IMG/VR virus record: IMGVR_UViG_2778261447_000008
Span: 1-13,187 of that record
Length of the DNA: 13,187 nt
Reading direction: 5' to 3' (one strand)
Source of the DNA: a virus
Lineage: Duplodnaviria; Heunggongvirae; Uroviricota; Caudoviricetes
This document shows, piece by piece, positions 1 through 13,187 of the stretch (the first letter of the stretch is position 1; each line of letters begins with the position of its first letter). Below the pieces are notes generated by a model. The model made no database searches, was not told the origin of the DNA, and saw nothing but the letters and a program-made list of their open reading frames with translations. A program made the position numbers and the translations under genes.

Positions 1-266
1 CTAGTCTAAAAACTAGTATTAAGACTATCACTTATTTAAGTGATACTGGTTGTCTGGAGATTCAGGGGGCCAGTCTAACCGCCCTGCAATAATCGAAATA
101 TTAGAAACAACCACTACAACTGTGGAGGCGATGATCGCACATCTGAATAGTATCGATAGTATTTACCATGAACCGATTTACAAAGCGGTTTACGAGTGGG
201 CCGTAAAGATTTTCTATCGATGATACTTCGTTATCTTGCTGGCATTCACAATACCTTTACATACTA

Positions 267-893
267 ATGACATGCCAGCACAATACTGTCACTTACAACC
301 GTTCGGATTACCTAGAGAAAAGTATGATTCAGGATTTACTGATCGAAGCAATTAGTCACGATAGGATGCATAAAAAGTTAAATGAACTGAATTGCTACTT
401 CTACAATCGCAAACATGAAACTCAAATACGTGATGAGTTAGTTGTTATTCTCAATCAAATCAGCACACTAACTGCTTTAAGTGAGCATCCAAAACTCGGT
501 ATCGGCGCTGTTGACATATCACTTTATAACCAGTCGATATTAACGTCTGAACATAATGGCAATGTTGCAACCATCGAGATCAAACACCATTACCCAAAGG
601 ATTTACTTTATCGGCAAGTTCAAGAAGACATCATTTCCGATATTTCAAGAGTAATAGTTTCACCAACTACACATTTTATCCATATAATCCAGCAAAGAAC
701 TAGGATTAATACTCCTTCTTTTGGCCAAGTGAAATTCCTTGAACGTGATGCAAGTGATATCAGCACTTATGTGCAATGCCTTGAAGAGCTAAGTTCCTTC
801 CCCAGTATCTTTCATAAAAAAAGTATATGTATTGAGGTACTTGGTGAAATTATGTCGACATATACCTTTAACGTATATTCATTTGACAACTGA
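267..893 (+). CDS. hypothetical protein; AT-rich cargo (moron) gene convergent with the lysis cassette
   Basis: 208-codon ORF in the track. Codon usage is AT-rich, unlike the flanking phage genes. No family recognised. No Shine-Dalgarno before 267; the Met20 ATG at 324 is preceded by a purine-rich stretch (gagaaaag) and may be the true start. Confidence 0.45.
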   Translation: MTCQHNTVTYNRSDYLEKSMIQDLLIEAISHDRMHKKLNELNCYFYNRKHETQIRDELVVILNQISTLTALSEHPKLGIGAVDISLYNQSILTSEHNGNVATIEIKHHYPKDLLYRQVQEDIISDISRVIVSPTTHFIHIIQQRTRINTPSFGQVKFLERDASDISTYVQCLEELSSFPSIFHKKSICIEVLGEIMSTYTFNVYSFDN

Positions 894-914
894 TTAATTT
901 GACAATTTTATTGC

Positions 915-1172
915 TTAATGGTTAGTTCTCTCTGCATCTATTTTACGAATATCAGCTTTATCCCGATTGCAGTTAGCCAGTGCAGACAACAGACTCACAT
1001 TCAGCTCCAGGCTGGCACCATAAGTCAGAGGATTTGGTATGAACGGTACAGGTGTTTCAGAAGTCAGACTAGTCGGTAATGTTGTAGCCGGAGTGCTCAC
1101 GTAAACTGTCCGCGTACTTCCGCAACCGCTCAGCAGCGGCAGCAGGCACAAGGCGTGCAGCACAACCATCAT
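915..1172 (-). CDS. Rz1-type outer-membrane spanin lipoprotein (o-spanin)
   Basis: Track ORF 915..1238 in a different frame from Rz. Internal Met-Met (ATG at 1172..1170) is followed by a signal peptide with lipobox LLSG|C and a proline-rich mature part (PATTLPTSLTSETPVPFIPNP). It starts inside Rz and runs past the Rz stop. Confidence 0.6.
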   Translation of the reverse strand: MMVVLHALCLLPLLSGCGSTRTVYVSTPATTLPTSLTSETPVPFIPNPLTYGASLELNVSLLSALANCNRDKADIRKIDAERTNH

Positions 1173-1449
1173 CCGCAACAGCCACTTTGATATCTTTCTG
1201 GGTTCTCTGTGACTCCAGTGCGATCTGCTGTTTTGCATGCTGGTTAACCTCTATAACTGTATTGACGATTTGCAGTGATTGCAGGACGTTACGGGTAATG
1301 GCTGTTGCAGATTCAGCATTTTGTACAGCCTCATCAGCACGTTTCTTTTCGTGCTGATATTTGCTGTAGTAGTGGTTGGCAGACCAGATGAAAGAACCGA
1401 TGACAGTAAAGAAGAATGCAGCGATAACCAGCTTATAGCTCAACTTCAT
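1069..1449 (-). CDS. Rz-type inner-membrane spanin (i-spanin)
   Basis: 126 aa with an N-terminal transmembrane helix (LVIAAFFFTVIGSFIW) and a charged, coiled-coil-like periplasmic part. Sits directly downstream of the endolysin and overlaps the Rz1 frame. Confidence 0.7.
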   Translation of the reverse strand: MKLSYKLVIAAFFFTVIGSFIWSANHYYSKYQHEKKRADEAVQNAESATAITRNVLQSLQIVNTVIEVNQHAKQQIALESQRTQKDIKVAVADDGCAARLVPAAAAERLRKYADSLREHSGYNITD

Positions 1450-1909
1450 TTACCACCCCACCAGCCTCTTTAAATCGGGCAATCAGGTCACCGATTTTAT
1501 GTTCATACTGACCGTAACCTGCACCAGGTAACGACGCCCAGATATTGCTGCAACGGTCGATTGCCTGACGAATATCACCGCGATCAATCATCGGTAAAGC
1601 GCCACGCTCTTTAATCTGCTGCAATGCCACAGCATCCTGGCTTTTGGGAGAGAAGTCTTTCAGAGCAAGCTGCTTACGGTAGGCATCCCACCAGCGTGAA
1701 AGAAGCTGGTAACGTCCGGCGGCTGTTGATTTGAGTTTGGGGTTTAGCGTGACAAGTTTGCGAGGGTGATCGGAGTAATCAGTGAACAGTTTGCCACCAA
1801 CAATAACATCATAACCGTGGTTACGTGTCGGTTGTCGCCCGTTATCCGTTCCTTCTGACCAAGCCACCATATCAAGGAAAGCTTTACGCTGGGAATTTAG
1901 TACCTGCAT
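1433..1909 (-). CDS. R: endolysin, lambda R-type lytic transglycosylase
   Basis: The 158 aa translation is near-identical over most of its length to lambda R as I recall it (QRKAFLDM.AWSEGTDNGRQ.TRNHGYDVIVGG, GRYQLLSRWWDAYRKQL, DRCSNIWASLPGAGYGQ). Positioned between holin and Rz. Confidence 0.9.
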   Translation of the reverse strand: MQVLNSQRKAFLDMVAWSEGTDNGRQPTRNHGYDVIVGGKLFTDYSDHPRKLVTLNPKLKSTAAGRYQLLSRWWDAYRKQLALKDFSPKSQDAVALQQIKERGALPMIDRGDIRQAIDRCSNIWASLPGAGYGQYEHKIGDLIARFKEAGGVVNEVEL

Positions 1910-1912
1910 AAA

Positions 1913-2239
1913 TTACTCCTTAGAGCCACCAAATTTGTTACCGATTACTCGCATTGCAGCCCCACGAATAGCATCGACACCGATCAGCCCCACTCCACCA
2001 CCAATGGCAACAGATAGTGATTTAGGCCATCCGACATACTCAAGAGCGGATGCAAAAGTCAGCGTCAGAGCGCCACAGAGTAGAATTTCGAGTGTTTTTC
2101 GCTTCCAGCCACCACCACCGCCAAAATAGGCAATACGTAAACCAGCCATAACAATCGACATAATCACTGCGCCCAGCGGTGTGTCTCCACGCCACCAGCT
2201 CTGGACCAACTCCAACCAGGTATTTGGGTTATGAGGCAT
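1913..2239 (-). CDS. holin (three predicted transmembrane segments)
   Basis: 108 aa with three hydrophobic segments and a charged C-terminus. Stop lies 3 nt upstream of the endolysin start. First gene after a late-leader terminator. Confidence 0.7.
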   Translation of the reverse strand: MPHNPNTWLELVQSWWRGDTPLGAVIMSIVMAGLRIAYFGGGGGWKRKTLEILLCGALTLTFASALEYVGWPKSLSVAIGGGVGLIGVDAIRGAAMRVIGNKFGGSKE

Positions 2240-2377
2240 TTGTAGTTATCTCTCACCTCGCTGATACAGCAGGTGCAAATTGAGGAAACATCATGTACCG
2301 CAAATCAGAAGCGGAAACGTCAAAGAAGCCGAGTCAATGGATAACTGCGGGATAGGCCAGGACCAAGGAATCCCCAG

Positions 2378-2413
2378 ACCCAGAAACGACAAAACCCGCT
2401 CGATGGCGGGTTT
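2378..2413 (-). terminator. intrinsic terminator in the late leader (tR'-like), minus-strand sense
   Basis: Perfect 8-bp stem aaacccgc / gcgggttt (2392-2399 and 2406-2413) with a 6-nt loop. On the minus strand it is followed by ttttgtcgttt; the plus-strand side has only three T. Confidence 0.5.
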
Positions 2414-2420
2414 AAGCTGT

Positions 2421-2530
2421 GTGGCGAAGTGAGCACACTTAACAGATTACGATATTTTTTGCGTACGCGTTAGTGTTTTGATAGAATTTTCAGCCGCATA
2501 AAAATTCATTCTTATAATTCGGGATATATA
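2421..2530. promoter_or_regulatory. intergenic control region: candidate late promoter/qut on the minus strand and candidate cassette promoter on the plus strand
   Basis: Non-coding gap between the terminator hairpin and the cassette start. A perfect TATAAT lies at 2513-2518 (plus), 12 nt before the ATG at 2531, with no good -35. The minus-strand pR'-like hexamers could not be pinned down by eye. Confidence 0.3.
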
Positions 2531-3706
2531 ATGGATATAACTTGTTTAGAATGTGGCAATGTTCTTGACGACCCAACTGTAGCTTGCGATAAATGCGGTG
2601 CCACGCCTCATGTTGTAGTGCTGGGCAAACAATCGTACTTTCCTATTGGTGCTGTAACAGCAAATCTTGAAAAAAATGATTCAAGAGCATTTGATTATCG
2701 ATTAGGTGAAGTTTGGGATCTAAAAAATGAAGTCACATCTGAATTCATAACCAGAATTGAGAAAAAATTTAGCCGAAAAAACAAATTTCATAACTTCCTA
2801 GACTCAGATCACAACCCTTCATCCATTCCTACGATCCTAAAAAAATACATTAATAAAAATAATGAATTCATTGATTTATCTAGAGCTATAATAGAGAAGC
2901 TTAAACATAATGCTAATAACGAATCGAGAGTTGCCCAACTTCAGGGGGGGAGCGTTGTTTTCATCCACTATAAGTCTACCGAACCAGAGGATTTGGGGAA
3001 ACTTCTAATCGTAATGGTTGATAAACAAAGCGCCTATGACTTTGATTCGGATAAGTTGACCCCAACAAGATTAAATCCAATTAATACCGATGCCTTACGG
3101 CAGGCTGCGATGTTCGATTTAACTTTATTCGAAGCCAGTTATCCAGAAAACAAGGGTGACTCATATGTACATTTCTTGCAAGGTAAATCTAAAAGCGATT
3201 TTTTCAAAGACTCATTAGGTTGCCGACATGATTCGGACAATAAAAGAAGCATTCAGCAATTATTCAGTGCTATAGATATTTTTGCTAGTAAAAACTCACT
3301 CGGTCGTGTACTGCGTGATACTATTGACAATGAAGTTAAATCCTTACTGGAAAAAAAATCAAAAGATAAATACGGAAATAAGTCCGTTAAGATAGAGGAT
3401 ATTTCAAAAATAATTGACTCATGCCTGACTGATTCACACAAATGTAAGGGAACGTTTGTCGATTTTGTTAATCTTAATGGTTTCCAGATTGACCCTCAAT
3501 TTGAACCAACTCCTAAAGCAGCTGAAAGCGCGCTTACAATTGAAGTGGCAGATAACGACAATAATTTTAAGTTGAAAATAATGCGTGGAGCTATTGGAGA
3601 CGAAAAGTCAAATAAGCCTGTAATTCTCACTGACAACAAATGCGAAATTGTGATAAAATTGAGTCAGGCAAATTATGATGAACTCAAAAGATATAGAGAC
3701 AGCTAA
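2531..3706 (+). CDS. zinc-ribbon protein with NdpA/YejK (NA37)-like nucleoid-associated-protein region; first gene of AT-rich cargo cassette
   Basis: 391 aa. N-terminal Cys4 motif (CLECGN...CDKCG). The central region carries motifs I recognise from E. coli YejK/NdpA (GGSVVFIHY vs GGFVLFCHY; YVHFLQGKSKSDFFKDSLG vs [22 protein letters not shown]), recalled from memory. Very AT-rich. Confidence 0.6.
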   Translation: MDITCLECGNVLDDPTVACDKCGATPHVVVLGKQSYFPIGAVTANLEKNDSRAFDYRLGEVWDLKNEVTSEFITRIEKKFSRKNKFHNFLDSDHNPSSIPTILKKYINKNNEFIDLSRAIIEKLKHNANNESRVAQLQGGSVVFIHYKSTEPEDLGKLLIVMVDKQSAYDFDSDKLTPTRLNPINTDALRQAAMFDLTLFEASYPENKGDSYVHFLQGKSKSDFFKDSLGCRHDSDNKRSIQQLFSAIDIFASKNSLGRVLRDTIDNEVKSLLEKKSKDKYGNKSVKIEDISKIIDSCLTDSHKCKGTFVDFVNLNGFQIDPQFEPTPKAAESALTIEVADNDNNFKLKIMRGAIGDEKSNKPVILTDNKCEIVIKLSQANYDELKRYRDS

Positions 3707-3708
3707 TA

Positions 3709-4269
3709 ATGACAATTGCTGATGACTTATCAAGATTAGCGCAGATTATTAACGGAGCCTCAAGCAGAGTTGAGGGCTACTACACTGTCATAAGTCTTGA
3801 AGAAAGCATTGTTATTGTAAATAGTTCTGAAATAATTAGACTGTTACAATCTATAGGTTATAAAAAGGCAACAACCTGCATCGAAAATAATGAAATTTGG
3901 CTAGATCGCCAAGCTTCATCTTGGGATGACGCTATAATTTATGAGAATGTTGAGTCTTTTTGGTCTAGAGTAAACACCCAAAACGCTCTTCCGAAAAATT
4001 ATATCATCGGAACGCCGTTAATACTCCCTACTTCTAAGAATGAAAGCATCGAAAAAATCCATATTTTCTTTATGTGGAAAGATATCCTTTCATTAATTGC
4101 TGATCATCATAACAGTGACTGCTCTGTCTTATTTTTCACCAATGAAGACAAAAGTTATACAGTCGAACTCACGCATTTTTTACAATATAGCGAGATTAAT
4201 CGCTTATCGAACTCGTCTCTTAAATATGAAATTATAAAGGAGCTTCTCGACACAATAAAAAATCAATGA
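3709..4269 (+). CDS. hypothetical protein; second gene of cargo cassette
   Basis: 186 aa. The ATG overlaps the tandem stop codons of the upstream gene (taaTAATG), indicating translational coupling. AT-rich; no recognisable family. Confidence 0.55.
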   Translation: MTIADDLSRLAQIINGASSRVEGYYTVISLEESIVIVNSSEIIRLLQSIGYKKATTCIENNEIWLDRQASSWDDAIIYENVESFWSRVNTQNALPKNYIIGTPLILPTSKNESIEKIHIFFMWKDILSLIADHHNSDCSVLFFTNEDKSYTVELTHFLQYSEINRLSNSSLKYEIIKELLDTIKNQ

Positions 4270-4354
4270 TTTACACAAAAGCGAGCGCAAACTCGTTATA
4301 CGCTCAGCCATAAACGAAGTATTTAAAGCAAATGGTACGTTCAATTTCTTTGAC

Positions 4355-4924
4355 TTGCTTAACTCTACTGAACTCGTCAGGAAAAAATATGATGAACTAT
4401 ATGAGATTTACACAAAGAGGTTTTCTGTAAATAAAATTCTTAACGAACTCGATGAGAAAAATCTTGAGTTCACGAGTAAAATTAACGAATTCATATCATC
4501 TAATCAGACAAAAGCATTGACTATTCCCGGTGCATTAATAGCAGCTGGTGGCTTAGTGAAGGCTAATGAAACAACCGAAGCAATATTGATTATCGCAGGA
4601 CTTTGGATGATAAAAAAAGTCAATTACATTTCTATTGAGATATTCAATGAAACATTCGACAACTTACGTTCTCGAGTGGAGTCCGCTTTCGATAAGTATT
4701 TAAAGTTTGAAGAAAATAAAGAAATCAAAGATAATGCAGATAGTATTAAGAGTAGCATTACAGGTTTGATTGATAAAGCTAAAAAAAGGATGAGAACTGT
4801 TAAATATCTCGCATCAGCCATGTTTTATGGAGGCCTTATTTACGTTGGATATAAACAGTTCCCAGTCTTTTTTGAAAAATCGGCAGTAAATCTATTTTAT
4901 TTTTTATGCCATACTATAAGCTAA
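4355..4924 (+). CDS. small predicted membrane protein (two hydrophobic helices); third gene of cargo cassette; start codon uncertain
   Basis: 189-codon frame with hydrophobic segments ALTIPGALIAAGGLV...ILIIAGLWMI and YLASAMFYGGLIYVGY. The track start is TTG with no Shine-Dalgarno and there is no in-frame ATG before residue 84. A strong AGGA-N6-ATG at 4379-4391 is in another frame. The 3' end overlaps the Q 3' end by 21 bp. Confidence 0.45.
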   Translation: MLNSTELVRKKYDELYEIYTKRFSVNKILNELDEKNLEFTSKINEFISSNQTKALTIPGALIAAGGLVKANETTEAILIIAGLWMIKKVNYISIEIFNETFDNLRSRVESAFDKYLKFEENKEIKDNADSIKSSITGLIDKAKKRMRTVKYLASAMFYGGLIYVGYKQFPVFFEKSAVNLFYFLCHTIS

Positions 4925-5275
4925 CATTGCTAAACAGCCGTCAACAAACCCCATTGCAGTTTGCAGTTCCTTCCTAATTGTGCCATCAGAGCATTTTCTC
5001 TTCTTCGCAATAGTGCGTAATGAGATACCGATAACAAAGTGGGCGATGATGAGCTCATATTCCTCTGGTTTATACCTTCTCAACCGAGCCACACAACTGT
5101 CTATCATGATGCCTTCGTCATCATCACACTGAATCCGTGACTTTTTGCCATGAGGTAAAAGTCCCTTGAAACCAGCCGCTATCGGCTGCCAGTCCACTCC
5201 GCTATTGTCTGAAGCAGCCCAAGCTCCCCAACGATCCATTACTTCATACATATCACGCATCAACTTTCTCCACAA
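4904..5275 (-). CDS. Q: late-gene antiterminator Q (QuuD / phage-82-type)
   Basis: 123 aa with the motifs RWGAWAA, IAAGFKGL, KSRIQCDDD, C.ARL and CSDG.I.K.LQ that I recall from E. coli QuuD-type Q proteins. Last gene of the minus-strand early operon, upstream of the lysis genes. Confidence 0.8.
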   Translation of the reverse strand: MWRKLMRDMYEVMDRWGAWAASDNSGVDWQPIAAGFKGLLPHGKKSRIQCDDDEGIMIDSCVARLRRYKPEEYELIIAHFVIGISLRTIAKKRKCSDGTIRKELQTAMGFVDGCLAMLAYSMA

Positions 5276-5277
5276 AA

Positions 5278-6273
5278 TCAGGCCAGCACACCAATTGCCA
5301 GCGCACGATCGATAAAACGAAATATCAACTCCAGCTGGGAGCCATACTTCTCTTCAAATGCCACGGTATCCGCATGCAGCTCGTCGTGATGCTTTCTGCA
5401 CAAAGGCAACACAAAGAGATCATGCGCTTTTGTACCCATTCCCCCCTGACCGTGGCCTATCAGATGGTGGGGATCATCAGCAGGCTTTCCACAACATGCA
5501 CACGGCTGCGTCTTAACCCAGCGCGTGTACTTTTCATTAACCCAGCGGCGACGTTTTGGGCGTAACATAAAAGACTCCGGCGACTCCGGCTCCACTTTCA
5601 GCGCCAGCACCTTTTTCGCTTTATCCTGGATGATGCTGGTGGCAGGAACCGAAGGAACAAGGTCACTTTCCCGGGTGACAGACGGCACAACAGGCTTCGG
5701 TAATCTCAGTGCCTTACGGGCTGCACTTTCCGGTAAGGCATCCGCCAGGTCATTACGAACCAGCCACCAGCATAGTTCCGGCATTGTCACAACGTGACTA
5801 TCATCAAAACCGAGATCCCGACGCACAACAGACAATACCCAGCGGGCACAGTTATCCGTTGCCATTGATTCCAGCCGTTCCGTGAACTGATCGCGCAGCT
5901 GGTTATCGCAGTGCCAGCACAGACGGATTGCGCCCGGAGCGTGTCGCATTGTGGTCATGTTCTCGCTGTGCCAGTCGGAATGAGGCCACTGGCAGCCTTT
6001 TTCACGAAGTAACCAGCTTTCAAGACATTCCACCCCACCAGCACGACGGATCACTGTCTCATTGCGGAACACGGCCCGAACGGCAGGATCATCCGCCAGC
6101 GTTTGTGATGCCGCCGGAACGGCACCACTGGCAAAAGATGAATAACGTTCCGGCTCAGGCTCCAGCAGGACACGCCCCTGCATAAACAGGGGCATCAGCT
6201 CTGAACCTGGTCTGAACAATACGATCCCCATACGCGGGGCAATTTCAGGGGTCAGTAGCGCTCTCACGGTCAC
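5278..6273 (-). CDS. DUF968-family prophage protein with HNH-like Cys/His cluster (YdfU-like)
   Basis: 331 aa; the C-terminus carries CACCGKPADDPHHLIGHGQGG...CRKHHDELH. Typical nin-region position between KilA-N and Q. Tightly packed against both neighbours. Confidence 0.7.
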   Translation of the reverse strand: MTVRALLTPEIAPRMGIVLFRPGSELMPLFMQGRVLLEPEPERYSSFASGAVPAASQTLADDPAVRAVFRNETVIRRAGGVECLESWLLREKGCQWPHSDWHSENMTTMRHAPGAIRLCWHCDNQLRDQFTERLESMATDNCARWVLSVVRRDLGFDDSHVVTMPELCWWLVRNDLADALPESAARKALRLPKPVVPSVTRESDLVPSVPATSIIQDKAKKVLALKVEPESPESFMLRPKRRRWVNEKYTRWVKTQPCACCGKPADDPHHLIGHGQGGMGTKAHDLFVLPLCRKHHDELHADTVAFEEKYGSQLELIFRFIDRALAIGVLA

Positions 6274-6274
6274 C

Positions 6275-7084
6275 TCAATGAACGGTATCGAGCAGCTTTA
6301 ACAGCTCAGGGAATCGGGATTCGAAGAAATGCGGCTGCGTCTCGCGCGGATTTGCGGGACTGGTGATGTTCTTGCCGAACATGCAACCTTTCGCTGTCAG
6401 CGACCAGAATTTTTTGATGTTGTTAATCGCGGTACGGCTGTATCGTTCGCGCTGCTCGACGATCCCCAGTTTCACCATCTGGTGATATGCCTGATTAGCC
6501 GTCAGGCGTATACCATACTGTTTCAGCAGTGCGCTCAGTGACAGTGTCGGGCGACTTGAGCCATCGTGTGCATCAGCAGGAGCATCAATGGCATAGCGCG
6601 GTGCCAGATTCGGTAAGCCAACAGCCTCCTGGAGTTTCTGACAGGCACCAAGCACTGAAGAGTTAGACAGGTTTAACTCCCGGCGCATAAAGTCCAGCAG
6701 GATCACGCCAGCCTGCATCTTGTCAGCAGCCTGTCCGGATAATTTTTCCGGTGCGCTGGTTACCATATCGAAAGTACGGATCACCTTCAGATGGAATGAC
6801 GGGCTGATCCACATTGCATAGGCATACACCAGTTCCTTGCAGACATACGTTCCCCGTTCATTTCCCCCATGAATCACACTCACCGGGTCAACACCCAAAT
6901 TCTGGGTGTTGGTCAATTCATGAACAAGCTCAACAGTTTGTTGGCTGGAAAGAAACTTTCCCGGCTCCTTGGTTCTGGCATTTGCACCAGATGCTACTGC
7001 TGCGCGATGCAGATCGTTCAGGCTGTAACGCCCATAAGCATCACGACGAACTTCAATACCATCAATGACCATCAGATTATTCAT
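6275..7084 (-). CDS. KilA-N domain protein
   Basis: Starting at Met12 of the track ORF (ATG 7084..7082) gives an AAGGAG Shine-Dalgarno 9 nt upstream. N-terminal region (MVIDGIEVRRDAYGRYSLNDLHRAA) resembles KilA-N DNA-binding domains. Confidence 0.65.
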   Translation of the reverse strand: MNNLMVIDGIEVRRDAYGRYSLNDLHRAAVASGANARTKEPGKFLSSQQTVELVHELTNTQNLGVDPVSVIHGGNERGTYVCKELVYAYAMWISPSFHLKVIRTFDMVTSAPEKLSGQAADKMQAGVILLDFMRRELNLSNSSVLGACQKLQEAVGLPNLAPRYAIDAPADAHDGSSRPTLSLSALLKQYGIRLTANQAYHQMVKLGIVEQRERYSRTAINNIKKFWSLTAKGCMFGKNITSPANPRETQPHFFESRFPELLKLLDTVH

Positions 7085-7103
7085 ACTTCGTTTCTCCTTT
7101 TGC

Positions 7104-7493
7104 TCAGGCGGCTGCACCCGCCGTTTTCTCGTACTTACTGATAGTGATCTCGACCTTCCCTTCCGGGATAACCGGTCCCCACTCCACCAGCATTCTTTTC
7201 ACCTGACTGTCGTCTTCCCACACACCCGCGTGGGTCAGGGCGTCAAACAGTGCCTTGTTATAGTTGTCCAGATCGCGGATCCGGTTATCCGGAGGAAACA
7301 ACACGATCTCCACTGAAGCAGGTGCCGACGTTGGTTTCGGCAGACGACGTAACTGCTCAACTATTGCTGCGCACGCCGCGCTCTGGAATTTGCGCCCCGC
7401 CGCGCTTATCAGGCTCTTACCTGCAAACGCCCCTTTGTTGGGGTGTCGCCAGTACGTGTTCACGCTGAGCGGAAAAGGCCGGATCAGCTTCAT
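7104..7493 (-). CDS. rusA: RusA-family Holliday junction resolvase
   Basis: 129 aa with RDLDNYNKALFDALTHAGVWEDDSQV, matching the RusA catalytic-core pattern (RRDLDN...FDALT.AG.W.DD.QV). Confidence 0.85.
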   Translation of the reverse strand: MKLIRPFPLSVNTYWRHPNKGAFAGKSLISAAGRKFQSAACAAIVEQLRRLPKPTSAPASVEIVLFPPDNRIRDLDNYNKALFDALTHAGVWEDDSQVKRMLVEWGPVIPEGKVEITISKYEKTAGAAA

Positions 7494-7816
7494 ACTTTCA
7501 GGTCCCTCTCATGTAACCAGTGGGTTGCACGCAGCCTTGCGTTTTCCTCACCGGCAAGCAGTGCGCGGATAATCCCGACCGCCTCGCTGTCGTCGTCCTT
7601 CACCGCGGTATGAAGCGTTATCCCCCGGGCCACGCCACGCTTTATCGTGATGACGCCTTTTTTCTCCAGTGCGCGAAGATGCTCCACCGCTGCATTCACT
7701 GAACGGTATCCCAGCATGGTTGCCACCTCCTGATTGGTTGGCGGGAAGCCACGTTCTTTCTGATAAGAAATCAGCATATCCAGCACCTGCTGCTGGCATT
7801 GAGTTAACGTCGTCAT
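7490..7816 (-). CDS. LexA N-terminal DNA-binding-domain protein (no peptidase domain)
   Basis: 108 aa. Residues 1-70 align with the LexA winged-helix domain (QQQVLDMLISYQKERGFPPTNQEVATMLGYRSVNAAVEHLRALEKKGVI vs LexA [50 protein letters not shown]). No S24 Ser/Lys domain. ATGA overlap with rusA. Confidence 0.75.
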   Translation of the reverse strand: MTTLTQCQQQVLDMLISYQKERGFPPTNQEVATMLGYRSVNAAVEHLRALEKKGVITIKRGVARGITLHTAVKDDDSEAVGIIRALLAGEENARLRATHWLHERDLKV

Positions 7817-8466
7817 GCCGCCATCTCCCTGACCAGTTTTTCCGCCTGCTGGCGAACCTGCGCCAGAAACGCCTCACCACATGCCTCAAGTTCATCGCGC
7901 CCGATGTAGCTGATTGCCGGTCCCTTCCAGGTCTTATCGAAAACAGCAATAGCACCAGCGAAGAAAGCGCCTGTCGGCACCTGCTTCTCATCCTTCGGGA
8001 TAAACCAGGCAGGCAGTTCAAAACCAATACGCCCGCGAATAAAAGCAATATGATCTGCATCTTCCGGCCACCACACTTCGCTGGTGGCAGCTTTGATCAG
8101 GAAAACATAGCGCCCGCCCTTATCACGCATGGCACTGGCATGCTTCATGATGTAACGCATGCCAGTGATGTATTGCCCCTCATGCTGACTGGCGCGGCTG
8201 TATGGGGGATTACCAAAGGCAGCACCTTTAAGCTCCACAAGACGTTCTGACCAGTCATGCGCCAGCGCGTTGTCTTCCGCCGTGTAATACGCAGCACATT
8301 TGGCGTTATCACCATCAGTGAACAGATCCAGAACAAACGGGCCAAACAGGGTGTTAATTCCCCAGAAAATGTTATCCGGCGTGCGCCACTGATCGCCCAC
8401 TTCCTTCAGTTCATGGGCTGGTTTGTTCCGCAGTTCCGCCAGCGCCTGGCAATATTTATTACTCAT
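7813..8466 (-). CDS. phage DNA N6-adenine methyltransferase (Dam-like)
   Basis: NPPY catalytic motif (AAFGNPPYSRA). Start chosen at Met12 (ATG 8466..8464) because it overlaps the upstream stop as TAATG; the track ORF extends to 8499. Confidence 0.75.
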   Translation of the reverse strand: MSNKYCQALAELRNKPAHELKEVGDQWRTPDNIFWGINTLFGPFVLDLFTDGDNAKCAAYYTAEDNALAHDWSERLVELKGAAFGNPPYSRASQHEGQYITGMRYIMKHASAMRDKGGRYVFLIKAATSEVWWPEDADHIAFIRGRIGFELPAWFIPKDEKQVPTGAFFAGAIAVFDKTWKGPAISYIGRDELEACGEAFLAQVRQQAEKLVREMAA

Positions 8467-8960
8467 TAAGCCCCCACGTAATTCCCTGACAGATACCACT
8501 CTTCACCCGATGCCGCGCGCTTGCTGCTTTTCCGTAAGCACCGCTCACGACGCTCCAGAAAATTGTTTCGTTCTGGCTGGGAGTGGCTTTCACGGAATGC
8601 CGCCATCCACACCGTTGCAGCACGACGGTATAAGCCCCTGGACTCCAGTTCTTCCGCCTGGCGGGTCAGGCACAAAATCACCCGCGGGTCGTTAGTGCCG
8701 ACATAGAAATTGCGCACAGGTCTGGTTTCACGAACTGGTTGTGGTTCCGGATCCTGCGCTCTCTCAGTCAGGCGCGGGAAATGTCTGCGTGTATCTCCTT
8801 CACAACGGTGAGCCACACGCCCACTCTGACGTAACTTGCTTGCTGACTGCAGAACGTTCTGCCGTGAGTAACCTGCAAAAGCATCCGCAATGTCTCCGGA
8901 AGTACACCCCGGATGGGCTTCAATGAATTTCTGAACTTCATTCAAAAGACTCATAATCAC
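8466..8960 (-). CDS. hypothetical regulator with PerC-like motif
   Basis: 164 aa. The segment AEELESRGLYRRAATVWMAAF resembles the conserved PerC/Pch activator core (LE..GLWRRAA..W) as I recall it. Start overlaps the stop of the O-like gene. Confidence 0.45.
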   Translation of the reverse strand: MIMSLLNEVQKFIEAHPGCTSGDIADAFAGYSRQNVLQSASKLRQSGRVAHRCEGDTRRHFPRLTERAQDPEPQPVRETRPVRNFYVGTNDPRVILCLTRQAEELESRGLYRRAATVWMAAFRESHSQPERNNFLERRERCLRKSSKRAASGEEWYLSGNYVGA

Positions 8961-9898
8961 CCCCTGAATCCTGCAGGGATCTGGCTGTAGTCCACGTTGT
9001 CGTAACTGGCTTTGAAGTACGGGTCTTCGCGTTTTTCTGTGTACGTGCTGACGGACGGCGATAAGCGCAGGGAAAGCTCATCCCATTTTTCCCGCAACTT
9101 CGACGGGCTGAGCACGTTACGGCACCAGAACGGATCGCGGCTGACGCGGCTGTACATCTCGCAGATTTGTTTGTGAGTACGACCATCCTGCACACACATC
9201 AGGCGAATTTCGTTTGCCCAGGCTGTCCAGTTAGGTTCTTTGGGACGAACCACCTCGCCGTCACATTCGGCGGCCTGCTCGTACAGGGCGATGATTTTTT
9301 TCCAGAGCCACTGTGCGCAGGTCAAATCATCCTGCGTTCCCCACTGGCGATTTTTAGGGCTGAATACAACCGCATCAGGATAGCGAGTTAAAAAATCCTG
9401 TTCAGCCTTCTGCGTGTCCGGTTGCGAAGCGTCCGGACAAGAAGGTTTTTTATCTGACGGATCATGTTTTGATTTTACTGACGGATCCCCGCCAGATTCT
9501 GACGGGTGAAAACCCGCTTTTTTGCCAGATTTCGACGCATCAAATTTTGACGGGTCAGATTTTGATGCGTCAGATTTTGACGGGTCAGAATCTGACAGTT
9601 GAGAAAATGCCGCTGCCTGAAGCTTCGCAACGTTAAGCTGATAAACATTCGACGCATTGCGGTTACCCTGGCGACGCGCCTTACGCGTTAACCAGCCTTC
9701 TGCTTCCAGCCGTGCGATAGCCGTTCTGACGGTACTCATCCCCGCGCCAATCTGGCGGGCAATGGTTTCAATTGATGGCCAGCACACACCTTCGTCATTA
9801 CTGAAATCAGCCAGGCGGGCCATAATTGCCACGCTGGATAACTTCATGCCTGACGCAGCGCAACCATCCCATACATAGCCGGTTAATTTAGTGCTCAT
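8957..9898 (-). CDS. replication initiation protein (O-like) with N-terminal helix-turn-helix and an iteron-encoded linker
   Basis: 313 aa. The N-terminus (SIETIARQIGAGMSTVRTAIARLEAEGWLTRK) is a winged-helix typical of phage replication initiators. A low-complexity SDPSKSDASKSD linker is encoded by tandem DNA iterons, as in lambda O. Confidence 0.7.
   Translation of the reverse strand: MSTKLTGYVWDGCAASGMKLSSVAIMARLADFSNDEGVCWPSIETIARQIGAGMSTVRTAIARLEAEGWLTRKARRQGNRNASNVYQLNVAKLQAAAFSQLSDSDPSKSDASKSDPSKFDASKSGKKAGFHPSESGGDPSVKSKHDPSDKKPSCPDASQPDTQKAEQDFLTRYPDAVVFSPKNRQWGTQDDLTCAQWLWKKIIALYEQAAECDGEVVRPKEPNWTAWANEIRLMCVQDGRTHKQICEMYSRVSRDPFWCRNVLSPSKLREKWDELSLRLSPSVSTYTEKREDPYFKASYDNVDYSQIPAGFRG
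9493..9600. repeat. replication-origin iterons (tandem ~15-bp repeats, consensus CAGATTTTGACGGGT) inside the O-like gene
   Basis: Seven head-to-tail copies read directly: cagattctgacgggt, cagatttcgacgcat, caaattttgacgggt, cagattttgatgcgt, cagattttgacgggt, cagaatctgacagtt, plus tgacgga-type degenerate copies at 9448-9484. Confidence 0.65.
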
Positions 9899-9907
9899 GA
9901 CCGACCT

Positions 9908-10246
9908 CTATTTCTCTGAATTTACGACGAAACTGTTCGAGCGGGCTGAAGCACTCATGCTCATAGCCTTCGCGGAGGTAGATAACCCGTTGTGTTTCCG
10001 GCTCCCAACGAATGACTCTGACGGGTACTCCGTAGTGATCTTTGAACCAGCGGTTAACTTGTCGCAAAGGACTGTCTCCTTCTGCCGGTTGAAATCACCC
10101 ACAGCCCACTCTGCAAAGCTGTGGGTTACAATTTCCCTGTCACCTGGTACATTCACTGCATAGCAATATTCCACCTTCGCTTTTCCACCCGGTACAGGAA
10201 GCGCAATCAGTTGCGAGCGACGGTAGTGTGTTGTTAAACTGTTCAT
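9908..10246 (-). CDS. hypothetical protein, translationally coupled between the CII-like and O-like genes
   Basis: 112 aa. Its ATG overlaps the upstream stop as ATGA (10246..10243) and its stop lies 10 nt before the O-like start. No family recognised. Confidence 0.5.
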
Positions 10247-10812
10247 GCGTTAGTTTCTCCACAACCAGAAGCAATCGACGCCACGACGCCCGGAGCTGCA
10301 CACTCGCGGGCGTCATTACTTTCTGAAATGCAAAAAATTTTGTAGACCAGTGCTGCATGCTCCTGCAGCTTCGAAATTGAGAGATACAGCTCGTCGTTAA
10401 TTGCTGTCTTCTCATGCGGTTCCACTACACCGTCTTCGATTGCTGAACGAATCTGTTTTGAATAACTGCCGATCTGTTCAATGACTTCCAGCAGACGCTG
10501 GTTAATATCGGCGTTGTCCACATCCTCGACGTCAGGAAGAGACACAAAGACGCCATTTGTAGACTGCGCCACAGCATCAGCAATGAAGTGAGTGCCACCA
10601 GCACGCTGTAAAACCATTGCCCATCCCAGCGGGAAAATCTGATCGCCATCTGCACGAAGGCGGTTGAATAAAGCGTTTTCTGTTACATCGAGCCAGTCAG
10701 CCGCTTCAGCGTAACCACCCGGCAACGCCGCGATAGTTTTTCTGACAGCTTTCACGTACCACTCAGGCTGTTTTTCTATTTTCCAGTGATGCTTACCCAC
10801 GATTAGCCTCAT
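10243..10812 (-). CDS. putative CII-type regulatory protein (family assignment tentative)
   Basis: 189 aa, second gene after cro, in the position of lambda cII. Weak resemblance to CP76-type phage regulatory protein CII (L.N.L motif region). Not lambda CII itself. Confidence 0.45.
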
Positions 10813-10843
10813 CGTTCTGTGGTTAAAAATTGAAAGTGTTCTG

Positions 10844-11044
10844 CTAATCTTTCGGATAGATATCCGGTCTTAAGTCAGATTTCGTAATTGCACCTGACGT
10901 GCATTGCTCAAGTTTTTTAGCCAGCACAAAACTGGCTTTTTTATAGCCATTGAAAACCAGCCGTAAGTAGCCAGGTGTTGAGCCAACTTTTCCGGCCAAC
11001 TCGCCCTGCTGTTCTTTGGTTAAAGAGTCCCAATACGCTTTCAT
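10844..11044 (-). CDS. cro: Cro/YdaS-like helix-turn-helix regulator
   Basis: 66 aa from the ATG at 11044..11042 (MKAYWDSLTKEQQGELAGKVGSTPGYLRLVFNGYKKASFVLAKKLEQ), divergent from cI. The track ORF extends upstream into the operator region, which is implausible. An alternative start is at 11068. Confidence 0.65.
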   Translation of the reverse strand: MKAYWDSLTKEQQGELAGKVGSTPGYLRLVFNGYKKASFVLAKKLEQCTSGAITKSDLRPDIYPKD

Positions 11045-11047
11045 ACG

Positions 11048-11119
11048 ATATGTACCTACGGTGTACATATTACATGATTGAAATGAACCTTCAAGATACT
11101 TGTACCTTAACGGTACAAG
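11048..11119. promoter_or_regulatory. oR-like operator/promoter region between cro and cI
   Basis: Two palindromes: ATATGTAC-N7-GTACATAT (11048-11070) and CTTGTACC-N5-GGTACAAG (11099-11119). Candidate cro promoter on the minus strand: -35 TTGAAG (11094..11089), 16-nt spacer, -10 TAATAT (11072..11067). Confidence 0.55.
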
Positions 11120-11134
11120 GGTTTTAATTTCGTT

Positions 11135-11809
11135 ATGAAAACAATCCATGACATCCGGCGGTCTAACGCCAGAAAACTGAGAGATGGTGTTGGCGGGAAT
11201 TCTTCCTTTGCCACTATGATTGATCGCGAGCCAACCCAGACCAGCAGGTTTATGGGAGATGGTGCTACTAAAAATATCGGTGACAGCATGGCACGACACA
11301 TCGAAAAATGTTTCGACCTGCCTGTCGGATGGCTCGATCAAGAACACCAGACAACGAACATCACAAAAAAACCTGATGTTTCAATCACTAATAAACAAAT
11401 CACATTAGTCCCTGTCATATCATGGGTACAGGCCGGAGCATGGAAAGAAGTTGGATATTCTGAGGTTGATTTGAGCACAGCAGAAACGTATCCCTGCCCT
11501 GTACCCTGTGGGGAAATGACTTATATCTTGCGGGTGATAGGTGATTCAATGATTGATGAGTACCGCCCGGGAGACATGATTTTTGTCGATCCTGAAGTAC
11601 CTGCCTGCCACGGTGACGACGTTATTGCATTGATGCACGATACAGGTGAAACCACCTTCAAAAGGTTGATAGAAGATGGGACACAGCGTTATCTCAAAGC
11701 GTTAAACCCAAACTGGCCTGAGCCTTACATTAAGATCAACGGTAATTGCTCTATAATTGGAACTGTGATTTTCTCAGGAAAACCAAGAAGATACAAAATC
11801 AAAGCCTAA
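11135..11809 (+). CDS. cI: CI-type prophage repressor (helix-turn-helix plus S24 LexA-like peptidase domain)
   Basis: The C-terminal domain closely parallels lambda cI (PVISWVQAG..., GDSM serine motif, TFKRL lysine, ALNPNWPEP vs lambda LNPQYPMIP). The N-terminal DNA-binding domain is divergent, implying a different immunity specificity. Confidence 0.85.
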   Translation: MKTIHDIRRSNARKLRDGVGGNSSFATMIDREPTQTSRFMGDGATKNIGDSMARHIEKCFDLPVGWLDQEHQTTNITKKPDVSITNKQITLVPVISWVQAGAWKEVGYSEVDLSTAETYPCPVPCGEMTYILRVIGDSMIDEYRPGDMIFVDPEVPACHGDDVIALMHDTGETTFKRLIEDGTQRYLKALNPNWPEPYIKINGNCSIIGTVIFSGKPRRYKIKA

Positions 11810-11821
11810 TCAATGTTTATG

Positions 11822-11846
11822 AACCTGCTTCGGCAGGTTTTTTTAT
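11822..11846 (+). terminator. intrinsic terminator downstream of cI
   Basis: Hairpin aacctgc-ttcg-gcaggtt (11822-11839) followed by a run of T (11838-11845), 13 nt after the cI stop. Confidence 0.6.
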
Positions 11847-11848
11847 AC

Positions 11849-11876
11849 TTGACAATGTACCTTTGAGATACATAAT
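11849..11876 (+). promoter_or_regulatory. pL-like strong sigma-70 promoter with overlapping operator
   Basis: Consensus -35 TTGACA (11849-11854), 16-nt spacer, -10 CATAAT (11871-11876). The spacer holds ATGTACCTTTGAGATACAT, which matches the oR palindrome at 14 of 19 positions. Confidence 0.55.
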
Positions 11877-11986
11877 GTACCCAAGAGAAACAACAAACAG
11901 GCAGGACGCCCACGAAGTAGCCGCCTGGGGCATATGAAGTCCAGGATGATTCGTTAGCAACAAAAAAGCGCCCTACAGGACGCTTA

Positions 11987-11998
11987 GCTCTTTAACAA
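11987..11998 (+). promoter_or_regulatory. boxA-like antitermination element (rrn-type)
   Basis: GCTCTTTAACAA matches the rrn boxA core (TGCTCTTTAACAA) at 12 of 12 positions. It sits in the leader about 110 nt downstream of the pL-like promoter, preceded by a small stem-loop (aagcg...cgctt, 11966-11985). Confidence 0.4.
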
Positions 11999-12043
11999 TC
12001 TGGTCCCCATCAACAAGTAACTGATAACTTGAGGAGGTGTGAA

Positions 12044-12250
12044 ATGCACAAAACAGAACCAAAAATCGTCGCGCCCGGATACACAAATGAGGAAATTTAC
12101 GAGTGGATGGCAAAGAAGCTGGCAGCTATAAACCAGCTTCGTGAAGTGCTGTCTTATCGACAGGTAACAATAGACTCCTTAAAAAAACTGGATCAGGAAA
12201 TCACGGTTTTATCACAGGATGTTACTTTAGATATTGTGCAGACAAATTAG
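12044..12250 (+). CDS. small hypothetical protein, first ORF downstream of the pL-like promoter
   Basis: 68 aa from the ATG at 12044, with a strong Shine-Dalgarno GAGGAGG (12031-12037) 6 nt upstream. Not arginine-rich, so not an N-like antiterminator. The track ORF starts 15 nt earlier at a TTG. Confidence 0.55.
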   Translation: MHKTEPKIVAPGYTNEEIYEWMAKKLAAINQLREVLSYRQVTIDSLKKLDQEITVLSQDVTLDIVQTN

Positions 12251-12656
12251 GATCCCATTCATTTTCGTCAAAATCATCAAAGTGATGAATTTGTGATCTC
12301 CAGTCTCGATAATCTAAAAATTTCTGGGCGGTTACGCTTATTTTATCAAGCGTGAGTTCATCCTGAATTGAAAGAAGAAGTTCATCAAATTTCATCTCAT
12401 TAATCTGTTTTGGCATCCAGTGATGCTTCATCAGAATAAGGTGAACCAGAGCTTTTTTCCCATTCAACTGATTATAGGGAGTACCGAATTTCTTCCGGTG
12501 CTCATGTAAGACAAGGTCCAGAAGAGTAAGTAATGTTGCCCTTGATTCAACTTTGCTTATTTCGACTGATGACACTACCCCACTGATTTCAATGCCCCGA
12601 TACTTTCCAACATTTTCACAGTGGGATTTGTACAGCGTATAGATATTACCGGACAT
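12222..12656 (-). CDS. hypothetical protein; AT-rich cargo gene in the immunity region
   Basis: 144-codon ORF with an ATG start, AT-rich. Convergent with the pL-proximal gene, with 29 bp of 3' overlap. No family recognised. Confidence 0.5.
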   Translation of the reverse strand: MSGNIYTLYKSHCENVGKYRGIEISGVVSSVEISKVESRATLLTLLDLVLHEHRKKFGTPYNQLNGKKALVHLILMKHHWMPKQINEMKFDELLLSIQDELTLDKISVTAQKFLDYRDWRSQIHHFDDFDENEWDPNLSAQYLK

Positions 12657-12672
12657 TTCTTTTCCTTTTGCG

Positions 12673-12723
12673 TTGTTGGGGATAACCAGATTAACCGAAT
12701 CCTTGTTGTTGGGGAATAACCAG
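12673..12723. repeat. pair of 17-18-bp direct repeats upstream of the 12222..12656 gene
   Basis: TTGTTGGGGATAACCAG (12673-12689) and TTGTTGGGGAATAACCAG (12706-12723), differing by one inserted A and 33 bp apart start to start. They lie 17-70 bp upstream of the ATG at 12656. Confidence 0.5.
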
Positions 12724-12940
12724 GTCCACCTCGCCTGATGTGGCTAAAAGCAGGCACATAACAGCTAAGTATTTTCAACCAGAGAGAATCCTTAGCGTTG
12801 TGGTGAATGCGGCTCAGCGCACGCGGGTTAAGGTTGAGGCTGACAGTCGACCTTCTGTGGATACCCACCCGTCTGGTGTGCAACCTTCGCCAGGCACCGG
12901 GAGGCACCCGGCACCACAACTTTATGCTGTGTGTAGTCTT

Positions 12941-12987
12941 GACGGTACCAGTTTGTACCCTTGCTTCCGGCTGGTACCGTCCTTTTT
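12941..12987 (+). terminator. strong hairpin with T-tract (candidate intrinsic terminator or structured RNA 3' end), plus-strand sense
   Basis: Perfect 11-bp inverted repeat GACGGTACCAG (12941-12951) / CTGGTACCGTC (12971-12981) with a 19-nt loop, followed by CTTTTT (12982-12987). Confidence 0.4.
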
Positions 12988-13187
12988 ACAAAACAGAGAA
13001 GAGCATCACCGGACGACGGGCTCATAACCCAATCCATCCAGGCGGCAGTCATCGCAGGTGTTCTTCTCTGTTTTGTGGAGAAACTAACCGACCTTGCAGG
13101 GTCGATATGCTGAAGTGGTCAACAAAAACTGGCCACCGAGTTAGAGTTTTTTCCAGTATCGATTTTCCGATTCGTTTGGTGGTAACC

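Follow-up and report, generated by a model that had tools for sequence, protein, structure and literature searches.

Predicted operators of the e14/SfV-type repressor at the early promoters of a tailed-phage immunity region

Introduction

This report concerns a set of short palindromes in the two control regions of a phage immunity locus, contained in a stretch of 13,187 nucleotides (hereafter the window) from a tailed phage (Caudoviricetes; IMG/VR record IMGVR_UViG_2778261447_000008, positions 1 to 13,187). The palindromes lie between the divergent genes cI (repressor) and cro, where they make up the predicted right operator (OR), and beyond the end of cI at the early promoter pL, where they make up the predicted left operator (OL). 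The layout is close to that of phage lambda. As in lambda, cI and cro are divergent, and partly symmetric operators of a single consensus are placed at pR and pRM, the promoters of cro and cI, and again at pL, overlapping the promoter hexamers; cI is leaderless, an OR2-like site is located at about -43 of pRM, the repressor carries a LexA-type C-terminal domain, and the immunity module ends at OL. Unlike in lambda, with its 17-bp consensus, the sites here span 19 bp (ATGTACC-N5-GGTACAT) and have unrelated arms; their centre-to-centre spacings are 33, 17 and 20 bp, where lambda has about 23-24 bp; OR2 overlaps OR3 by 2 bp, no more than two OL sites can be recognised, and OL is 0.8 kb from OR without rex between them; the N-terminal domain of the repressor is distant from that of lambda (template modelling (TM) score about 0.48), and Cro is YdaS-like. 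Neither the N-terminal domain nor the operators are of imm-lambda specificity.

The repressors of 434 and P22 (c2) share with the present one the XRE-type fold class and operators with conserved arms and a drifting centre, the operator centres of 434 and P22 not being contacted by the repressor; they differ from it in operator sequence and length, and no sequence similarity is detectable. The Rep protein of Salmonella phage SPC32H binds its palindrome in tetrameric form, the domains it uses being contributed by separate dimers, and an antirepressor inactivates it (PMC9638917); it differs from the CI described here, which has a predicted self-cleaving domain like that of lambda CI. The PaaR2/YdaS/YdaT switch of CP-933P from E. 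coli O157:H7 has been footprinted and has a leaderless repressor gene, a YdaS-type Cro, operators that overlap PR and PRM, and PL as an additional regulated promoter (PMC8630535), in all of which but the footprints the present locus resembles it. PaaR2 is, however, unrelated to YmfK, the K-12 counterpart of CI, and its operators consist of four evenly spaced inverted repeats with the consensus GTTTAGTAA.

The locus is the immunity region of the E. coli K-12 prophage e14 (ymfK/cohE, ymfT/croE) and of the Shigella phages SfV and SfIV. Window positions 10769-11958 are 98.7% identical to K-12 e14 DNA, and the region is about 99% identical to SfIV and 98.4% identical to SfV; OL is identical to that of K-12, and in OR two positions are different, 11048 and 11058 (C->A). 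An e14-type region was found at a query coverage of at least 80% in 1,325 of 5,426 complete E. coli genomes. The SfV GenBank record U82619, from the 2002 work on the SfV genome, contains a cI terminator and a 'putative operator region' corresponding to window positions 11050-11118, which run from the outer edge of OR1 to that of OR3. None of the records examined has an annotation for the 19-bp consensus, for OR2 or for the OL sites, and a full-text literature search with the site sequences and with the core of a leader RNA described below gave no paper. Mehta, Casjens and Krishnaswamy reportedly identified binding sites of the e14 repressor and Cro by comparison with SfV (BMC Microbiol 2004; 4:4). 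A paper on mEpimmI was considered as a source and discarded; it concerns a different immunity group. The operators are essentially already known and their arrangement is an ordinary lambda-style one; possible small additions to what is known are OR2, the two OL sites and the consensus across the family.

Results

The palindromes are very probably the operators of the e14/SfV-type CI (YmfK), which, judging from sequence comparison, would shut off both early promoters. OR carries three sites and OL two recognisable ones, as follows (coordinates in the window, scores from the half-site matrix described below):

OR1, 11050-11068, ATGTACCTACGGTGTACAT: no or one mismatch, depending on the strand, 22.0 bits; overlaps the last 2 nt of the putative pR -10 element, the pR start and the cro ribosome-binding site
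OR2, 11083-11101, ATGAACCTTCAAGATACTT: weak, 11.0 bits; centred on the pR -35 element, at -43 from the cI start
OR3, 11100-11118, TTGTACCTTAACGGTACAA: perfect palindrome, no mismatch on either strand; its left half is the pRM -35 element
OL1, 11855-11873, ATGTACCTTTGAGATACAT: one mismatch, 22.0 bits; occupies the pL spacer and reaches 3 nt into the -10 element
OL2, 11875-11893, ATGTACCCAAGAGAAACAA: weaker, 15.7 bits; begins with the final 2 nt of the pL -10 element and continues through the start site

A first-pass annotation of the window had quoted OR1, OR3, OL1 and one additional half-site, and the coordinates of all four agree with the window sequence. Its pattern, TGTACC-N7-GTACA, fits none of the three sites as written; the true gap is N6, and the corrected pattern is TGTACC-N6-GTACA or, as a 19-mer, ATGTACC-N5-GGTACAT. 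Its placement of 11855-11873 inside the pL spacer was borne out (TTGACA 11849-11854, 16 bp, CATAAT 11871-11876). The half-site, AATGTACC at 11874-11881, is correctly located, but it is the left arm of the complete site OL2 and not a mere half-site. Overlooked at that stage were OR2, the full OL2, the overlap with pRM, and the identity with the annotated e14/SfV immunity region.

With at most one mismatch allowed and both strands searched, the N6 pattern occurs in the 13,187 bp of the window only at OR1, OR3 and OL1, against an expectation of 0.10, and its count was equalled in none of 200 shuffled windows. A half-site matrix was built from the six arms of the three strong sites (OR1, OR3, OL1); when scanned over the window, it ranks OL2 fourth (15.7 bits) and OR2 fifth (11.0 bits), the next match scoring 8.1 bits. 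In the complete SfIV genome (39.8 kb), five of the six top matches are the five OR/OL sites. Five sites score at least 11 bits there, four at least 15 and three at least 20, compared with 0.57, 0.057 and none per Markov-1 simulated genome. Given the shuffle, Markov-1 and SfIV counts, the operator pattern is far above chance and not genome-wide; the motif is concentrated in the two control regions of the window and of the whole SfIV genome. The first-pass annotation had named a similar frequency over the rest of the genome as refuting its reading, and this is not what was found.

Two lesser matches were assigned to chance: 11499-11517 in the cI coding DNA (8.1 bits), which encodes the conserved PCPVPCG and which phage yong2 does not preserve as DNA sequence, and an 11.2-bit match in SfIV gtrA, which falls within the null expectation of 0.57 per genome. 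A ranking of affinities by positions 1 and 19 was abandoned, as these are -10 bases in OR1 and OL1, and position 1 of OR1 is variable.

For comparison, one genome per species was scanned and two diverged phages were added, yielding 27 distinct OR and OL regions, to which the following conservation values refer; CI identity across this set is 57-100%. The alignment from OR1 to OR3 contains no indels, and the site spacing is constant. The OR consensus reads.TGTACCTCC...gTACAT..TaCA..a...aaATGaACC..CAAG..ACTTGTACC.....GgTACA.....t.taAt......ATG, and the OL consensus terminator-TTGACAATGTACC.....G.TACATAATgtacc.a..ag.aac. The arms are near-invariant and the central 5 bp free to drift, with GTACC-N5-GRTAC as the core. 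Information content is 1.6-1.8 bits per position in the OR1 arms, 1.6-2.0 in the OR3 arms versus 0.30 in the centre, and 1.9-2.0 in the OL1 arms versus 0.49 in the centre; constraint-free centres are seen only in OR3 and OL1. The left arm of OR2, ATGAACC, is kept at 1.75 bits despite its position in a promoter spacer; conservation at promoter-spacer and upstream positions extends to both this arm and G..AC. Six loci (L023, L028 and L032-L035, the last four from Halomonadaceae) have the arm in its canonical form, ATGTACC. The left arm of OL2 has 1.56 bits; its right arm (0.68 bits per position) is ag.aac at the majority of loci, and Edwardsiella phage EPP-1 and L022 carry GATACAC there, close to the consensus.

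That a single repressor controls both the cro promoter and pL, as the first-pass annotation proposed, is supported at the sequence level: the half-site is confined to the cro/cI intergenic region and pL, and is kept in all 27 loci. Further support comes from the edge of the module, from heteroimmune phages and from co-regulation in K-12. Homology to unrelated phages ends at 11880-11906, right past OL2, in seven independent lineages, and cro-OR-cI-pL/OL therefore moves as one immunity module. The heteroimmune phages SfII and ST64B have the downstream leader in common with the present locus, encode other repressors, and in the position of the present sites carry palindromes of the form TTGC..GCAA. 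In K-12, the left operon of e14 (ymfJ, ymfH, xisE, intE) and the right operon (ymfT, ymfL, ymfM, ymfN and others) belong to one iModulon together with sulA and recN, with ymfK outside it (PMC12132413, Table 1), and YmfK is listed as the 'SOS-sensitive repressor' of e14 (PMC8249747). A Cro homologue (identity 35-85%), divergent from cI, stands beside CI and the sites in 29 of 29 loci, and a CII-like gene is lacking in 10 of the 29, which retain the sites.

The genes and promoters of the two control regions are the following:

cro, 10844-11044, minus strand: 66 aa; homologue of K-12 ymfT/croE, named cro in the SfV and SfIV annotation
cI, 11135-11809, plus strand: 224 aa; product identical to E. 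coli K-12 YmfK (b1145)
pR (putative), 11067-11094, minus strand: -35 TTGAAG at 11094..11089, 16-bp spacer, -10 TAATAT at 11072..11067
pRM, 11100-11135, plus strand: -35 TTGTAC at 11100-11105, 17-bp spacer, -10 TTTAAT at 11123-11128, transcription beginning with the A of the cI ATG
tI, intrinsic terminator of cI, 11821-11847, plus strand: from a terminator scan; annotated in SfV and Ayreon; abuts the pL -35 element
pL, 11849-11876, plus strand: TTGACA, 16 bp, CATAAT; 11 of 12 consensus matches; an annotated promoter in phage Ayreon

cI and cro are separated by 90 bp, and their divergent layout is the same in 29 related loci. pR was assigned by hand reading and conservation and has 8 of 12 consensus matches; TTG of its -35 and TA..AT of its -10 element are kept in the 27 loci, and relatives have CATAAT, a stronger promoter. 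The pRM -10 element (t.taAt) lies at a constant distance from the cI ATG, with the hexamer ending 6 nt before it, and no Shine-Dalgarno sequence is found upstream of this ATG in the 27-locus alignment. In E. coli K-12, whose sequence is identical to the window from 11059 to the cI ATG, ymfK is one of five leaderless mRNAs mapped by differential RNA sequencing (PMC4681348); the pRM start is therefore at 11135, with the OR3 centre at -26 and the OR2 centre at -43. A tI-type hairpin with a T-run precedes pL in nearly all 27 loci. The TTGAC of the pL -35 element is invariant, its sixth base being T instead of A in L028, and the -10 element is kept as CAT.AT (CATTAT in L025 and L026); OL1 and OL2 are centred at about -19 and about +1 relative to pL. 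The operators thus overlap elements of three promoters, pL having come from a scan, pRM from the leaderless start known in K-12, and pR from hand reading and conservation. A LexA box (CTGT-N8-ACAG, at most one mismatch) is absent from 11045-11134 and 11840-11900, and SOS control must therefore run through the repressor.

A side observation concerns position 11058, in OR1 and the cro ribosome site, which is A in the window and C in K-12 e14, SfIV, SfV and all other related loci; the triplet is TCC in 24 of the other 26 loci, CCC in L030 and TCT in L025. The C->A change turns the cro Shine-Dalgarno sequence GGAGGT into GTAGGT, and may weaken Cro translation, biasing the prophage to stable lysogeny.

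CI is identical to K-12 YmfK at 224 of 224 residues, and also to the CI of SfIV. Residues 93-212 match the Pfam family Peptidase_S24 (E 1.5e-26), and the C-terminal domain matches that of lambda CI (E 2e-9). Ala100-Gly101 is present, and Ser138 and Lys176 are nearly invariant among relatives; by its sequence, the C-terminal half is a predicted self-cleaving peptidase of the LexA/lambda-CI type. The N-terminal 75 residues match no Pfam helix-turn-helix model. Their structural model is a helical bundle (predicted local distance difference test score 85) with a helix-turn-helix at 22-28 / 33-40, and the closest solved structure is SPC32H Rep (PDB 5D50; Foldseek TM 0.78-0.80, 35% identity), which is also matched by phmmer over residues 1-75 of CI (E 5e-4). 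The 434 (2or1), P22 (3jxb) and lambda repressors come next at a TM of about 0.5, with about 0.48 for the lambda cI N-terminal domain, to which no sequence match was obtained. The N-terminal domain belongs to the Cro/CI (XRE-type) class and is clearly not that of lambda, in agreement with the difference from lambda that had been surmised in the first pass. The cro product gives weak Pfam matches to YdaS and HTH_3.

Discussion

In the mechanism that we infer, dimers of the 224-aa CI would bind the sites and read the 7-bp arms ATGTACC / GGTACAT via the N-terminal helix-turn-helix, with helix 22-28 followed by recognition helix 33-40. At pL, OL1 would block the spacer between -35 and -10, and OL2 would cover the start site; at pR, OR1 would lie over the edge of the -10 element, the presumed start and the cro ribosome site, and OR2 on the -35 element. 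As the sites cover the elements of pL and pR, bound repressor would shut RNA polymerase out of both early operons. OR3 coincides with the pRM -35 element, and negative autoregulation is therefore possible; OR2, at -43, has the position from which lambda OR2 activates pRM. Centre-to-centre distances put the strong/weak pairs on the same face of the DNA (OL1-OL2, 20 bp; OR1-OR2, 33 bp) and OR3 out of phase (OR2-OR3, 17 bp, with an overlap of 2 bp), and the same-face pairing points to cooperative binding in pairs, as known from lambda. The sites are presumably contested by Cro (YmfT). In the SOS response, both promoters would be freed when RecA stimulates CI to cleave itself at Ala100-Gly101, with Ser138/Lys176 as the dyad.

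Several points weigh against the assignment of the palindromes to CI as operators. Part of the arm/centre conservation is explained otherwise: the OR1 centre is the cro Shine-Dalgarno sequence and the OR2 centre the pR -35 element, OR1 and OL1 have their outer 2-3 nt in -10 elements, and the left arm of OR3 is the pRM -35 element. As the matrix was built from the three strong sites, its scores for them are circular, and pR falls under the threshold of the promoter scan. Scores are low for OR2 (11.0 bits) and for the right arm of OL2 (0.68 bits per position), OL2 is missing from the three loci L028-L030, and the matrix scan finds no other match of at least 8.1 bits in the pL region that could serve as a third OL site. 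OR3 is the most perfect palindrome, though lambda logic predicts the weakest CI site at this position. In the literature searched, no electrophoretic mobility shift assay, footprint or chromatin immunoprecipitation was found for YmfK or YmfT.

Some of these points feed a narrower reading, in which the repressor sites are OR1, OR3 and OL1 only, and OR2 and OL2 resemble them through promoter constraint. The scores of OR2 and OL2 (11.0 and 15.7 bits, versus 22 for the strong sites), the coincidence of the OR2 centre with the pR -35 element, the poor right arm of OL2 and its absence in L028-L030, and the existence of a comparable chance site (the 11.2 bits in SfIV gtrA) speak in its favour. Nevertheless, the two sites rank fourth and fifth in 13 kb and each adjoins a strong site at an invariant distance; ATGAACC of OR2 is kept at 1.75 bits in a promoter spacer that is normally free, and is canonical in six loci, while OL2 is near-consensus in EPP-1 and L022. 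We therefore consider the restriction to three sites unlikely, if worth bearing in mind. It is rather improbable that the five sites are used in a switch that differs from that of lambda, with another assembly on the DNA, such as a tetramer across OR1-OR2 and OL1-OL2, a very short OL-OR loop, and OR3 as the primary Cro or autoregulatory site; the grounds for this version are the fixed 33/17/20-bp spacings with the 2-bp overlap of OR2 and OR3, the two OL sites 0.8 kb from OR, and a DNA-binding domain whose only close solved relative is Rep, which binds as a tetramer.

A protein cannot be assigned to the sites from the letters of the DNA alone, and the palindromes might be bound mainly by Cro (YmfT), which is co-inherited with them at every locus and whose lambda counterpart binds first at the position of OR3, here the best palindrome, or by another regulator, such as the CII-like YmfL. 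Yet the CII-like gene is lacking in 10 of the 29 site-bearing loci, the pL sites adjoin cI and are distant from cro, as is classic for repressor sites, and e14 repression with release in the SOS response needs a cleavable repressor at both promoters. In lambdoid phages and in CP-933P, repressor and Cro use common operators (PMC8630535), which makes use by both likely, and use by Cro or another regulator instead of CI very improbable. The inverted repeats could also be nucleic-acid hairpins working as terminators or attenuators. The terminator scan does report a stem-loop at 11099-11119, followed by GGTTTTAATT, and a hairpin would likewise show a conserved stem and a variable loop; the arms, however, hold to a single sequence at all five sites across 27 lineages, and compensatory changes are absent, a signature of sequence-specific recognition, whereas a true RNA helix 20 bp downstream covaries freely, and OR3 is located between divergent promoters, upstream of both transcripts. 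The terminator-like call on OR3 was rejected on the invariance of its arms without covariation, and the hairpin explanation as a whole is barely credible.

With CI as the reader of all five sites, an operator consensus and a five-site layout are now fixed for one of the commonest immunity types of E. coli, in a textbook lambdoid arrangement that holds no surprise for the specialist. The same repressor is found in the serotype-converting phages SfV and SfIV, in Stx2c-converting phages, in the phage of cytolethal distending toxin I (CDT-I), and in Ayreon. When the operators of phages carrying it were compared, as the first-pass annotation had suggested, the repressors of L220 (Stx2c phage), L221 (phage cdtI), L003 (Ayreon) and L001 (SfV) were identical at 222-225 of 225 positions, with a recognition domain that is identical or differs by I4V, and the operator arms were the same and the centres different. 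Homoimmunity of these converting phages with e14 and SfV is therefore predicted; e14-type prophages are predicted to cross-regulate toxin- and serotype-converting phages, and induction of the converting phages to follow YmfK cleavage. The sites also provide exact targets for the engineering of e14-based switches.

Additional features of the locus

Two further genes lie downstream of cro:

ymfL homologue, 10243-10812, minus strand: CII-like, Phage_CP76
ymfM homologue, 9908-10246, minus strand: 112 aa, homologue of the SOS-inducible cell-division inhibitor SfiC

Because of the position of ymfM downstream of cro, derepression of pR should cause filamentation.

Directly past OL2, in the pL leader, we noted a candidate structured RNA of 62 nt (11893-11954, plus strand), with helices P1 (11893-97/11950-54), P2 (11900-02/11908-10) and P3 (11922-28/11941-48). 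In a consensus of 20 copies, compensatory double changes are seen at 9 of the 15 pairs, and pairing is kept in 96.7% of cells, versus 22-41% with the partners slid; none of 500 shuffles reached the covariation score. The element recurs 100-190 bp downstream of the repressor genes of many immunity types, including e14, SfII, ST64B, mEp237, phiNP, ZF40, YeP1 and SPN3UB, and always about 25-35 nt past a strong promoter. An exact 23-mer of its core is present in at least 120 viral contigs, one copy each, with 20 distinct complementary P3 stems and P1 variants such as GCGAA/TTCGC, CCACC/GGTGG and TCATC/GATGG; TGTACC operators precede it in just 18 of the 111 contigs that have at least 1,200 nt of upstream sequence. 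Rfam gave no match for the element at E <= 1, and only two sub-threshold chance matches over the region; no second copy was found downstream of pR in SfIV. Homology to HK022 put was considered and dropped, as neither a sequence nor a model match was obtained in HK022 27-34 kb. N is reported to be missing from SfV-type phages (PMC3851460), which makes a put-like cis-acting leader a reasonable guess; the RNA may serve these N-less phages as a put-like antitermination or leader element, and looks more novel than the operators.

Further downstream there is a GC-rich hairpin (11966-11985) with the score of an intrinsic terminator for the minus strand. Past it on the plus strand, GCTCTTTAACAA at 11987-11998 is identical to the rrn-type boxA consensus, and through it the pL transcript may carry a NusB/NusE-dependent anti-termination signal; the stretch 11966-11998 is common to SfIV and PhiR29 and is not shared by K-12 e14. 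The first open reading frame of the pL operon, 12044-12250 on the plus strand (68 aa), matches nothing in Pfam and lacks an arginine-rich motif, and is therefore not an N-like antiterminator. The first pL gene varies among SfIV, SfV, e14 and Ayreon; the promoter and the leader are common to all of them.

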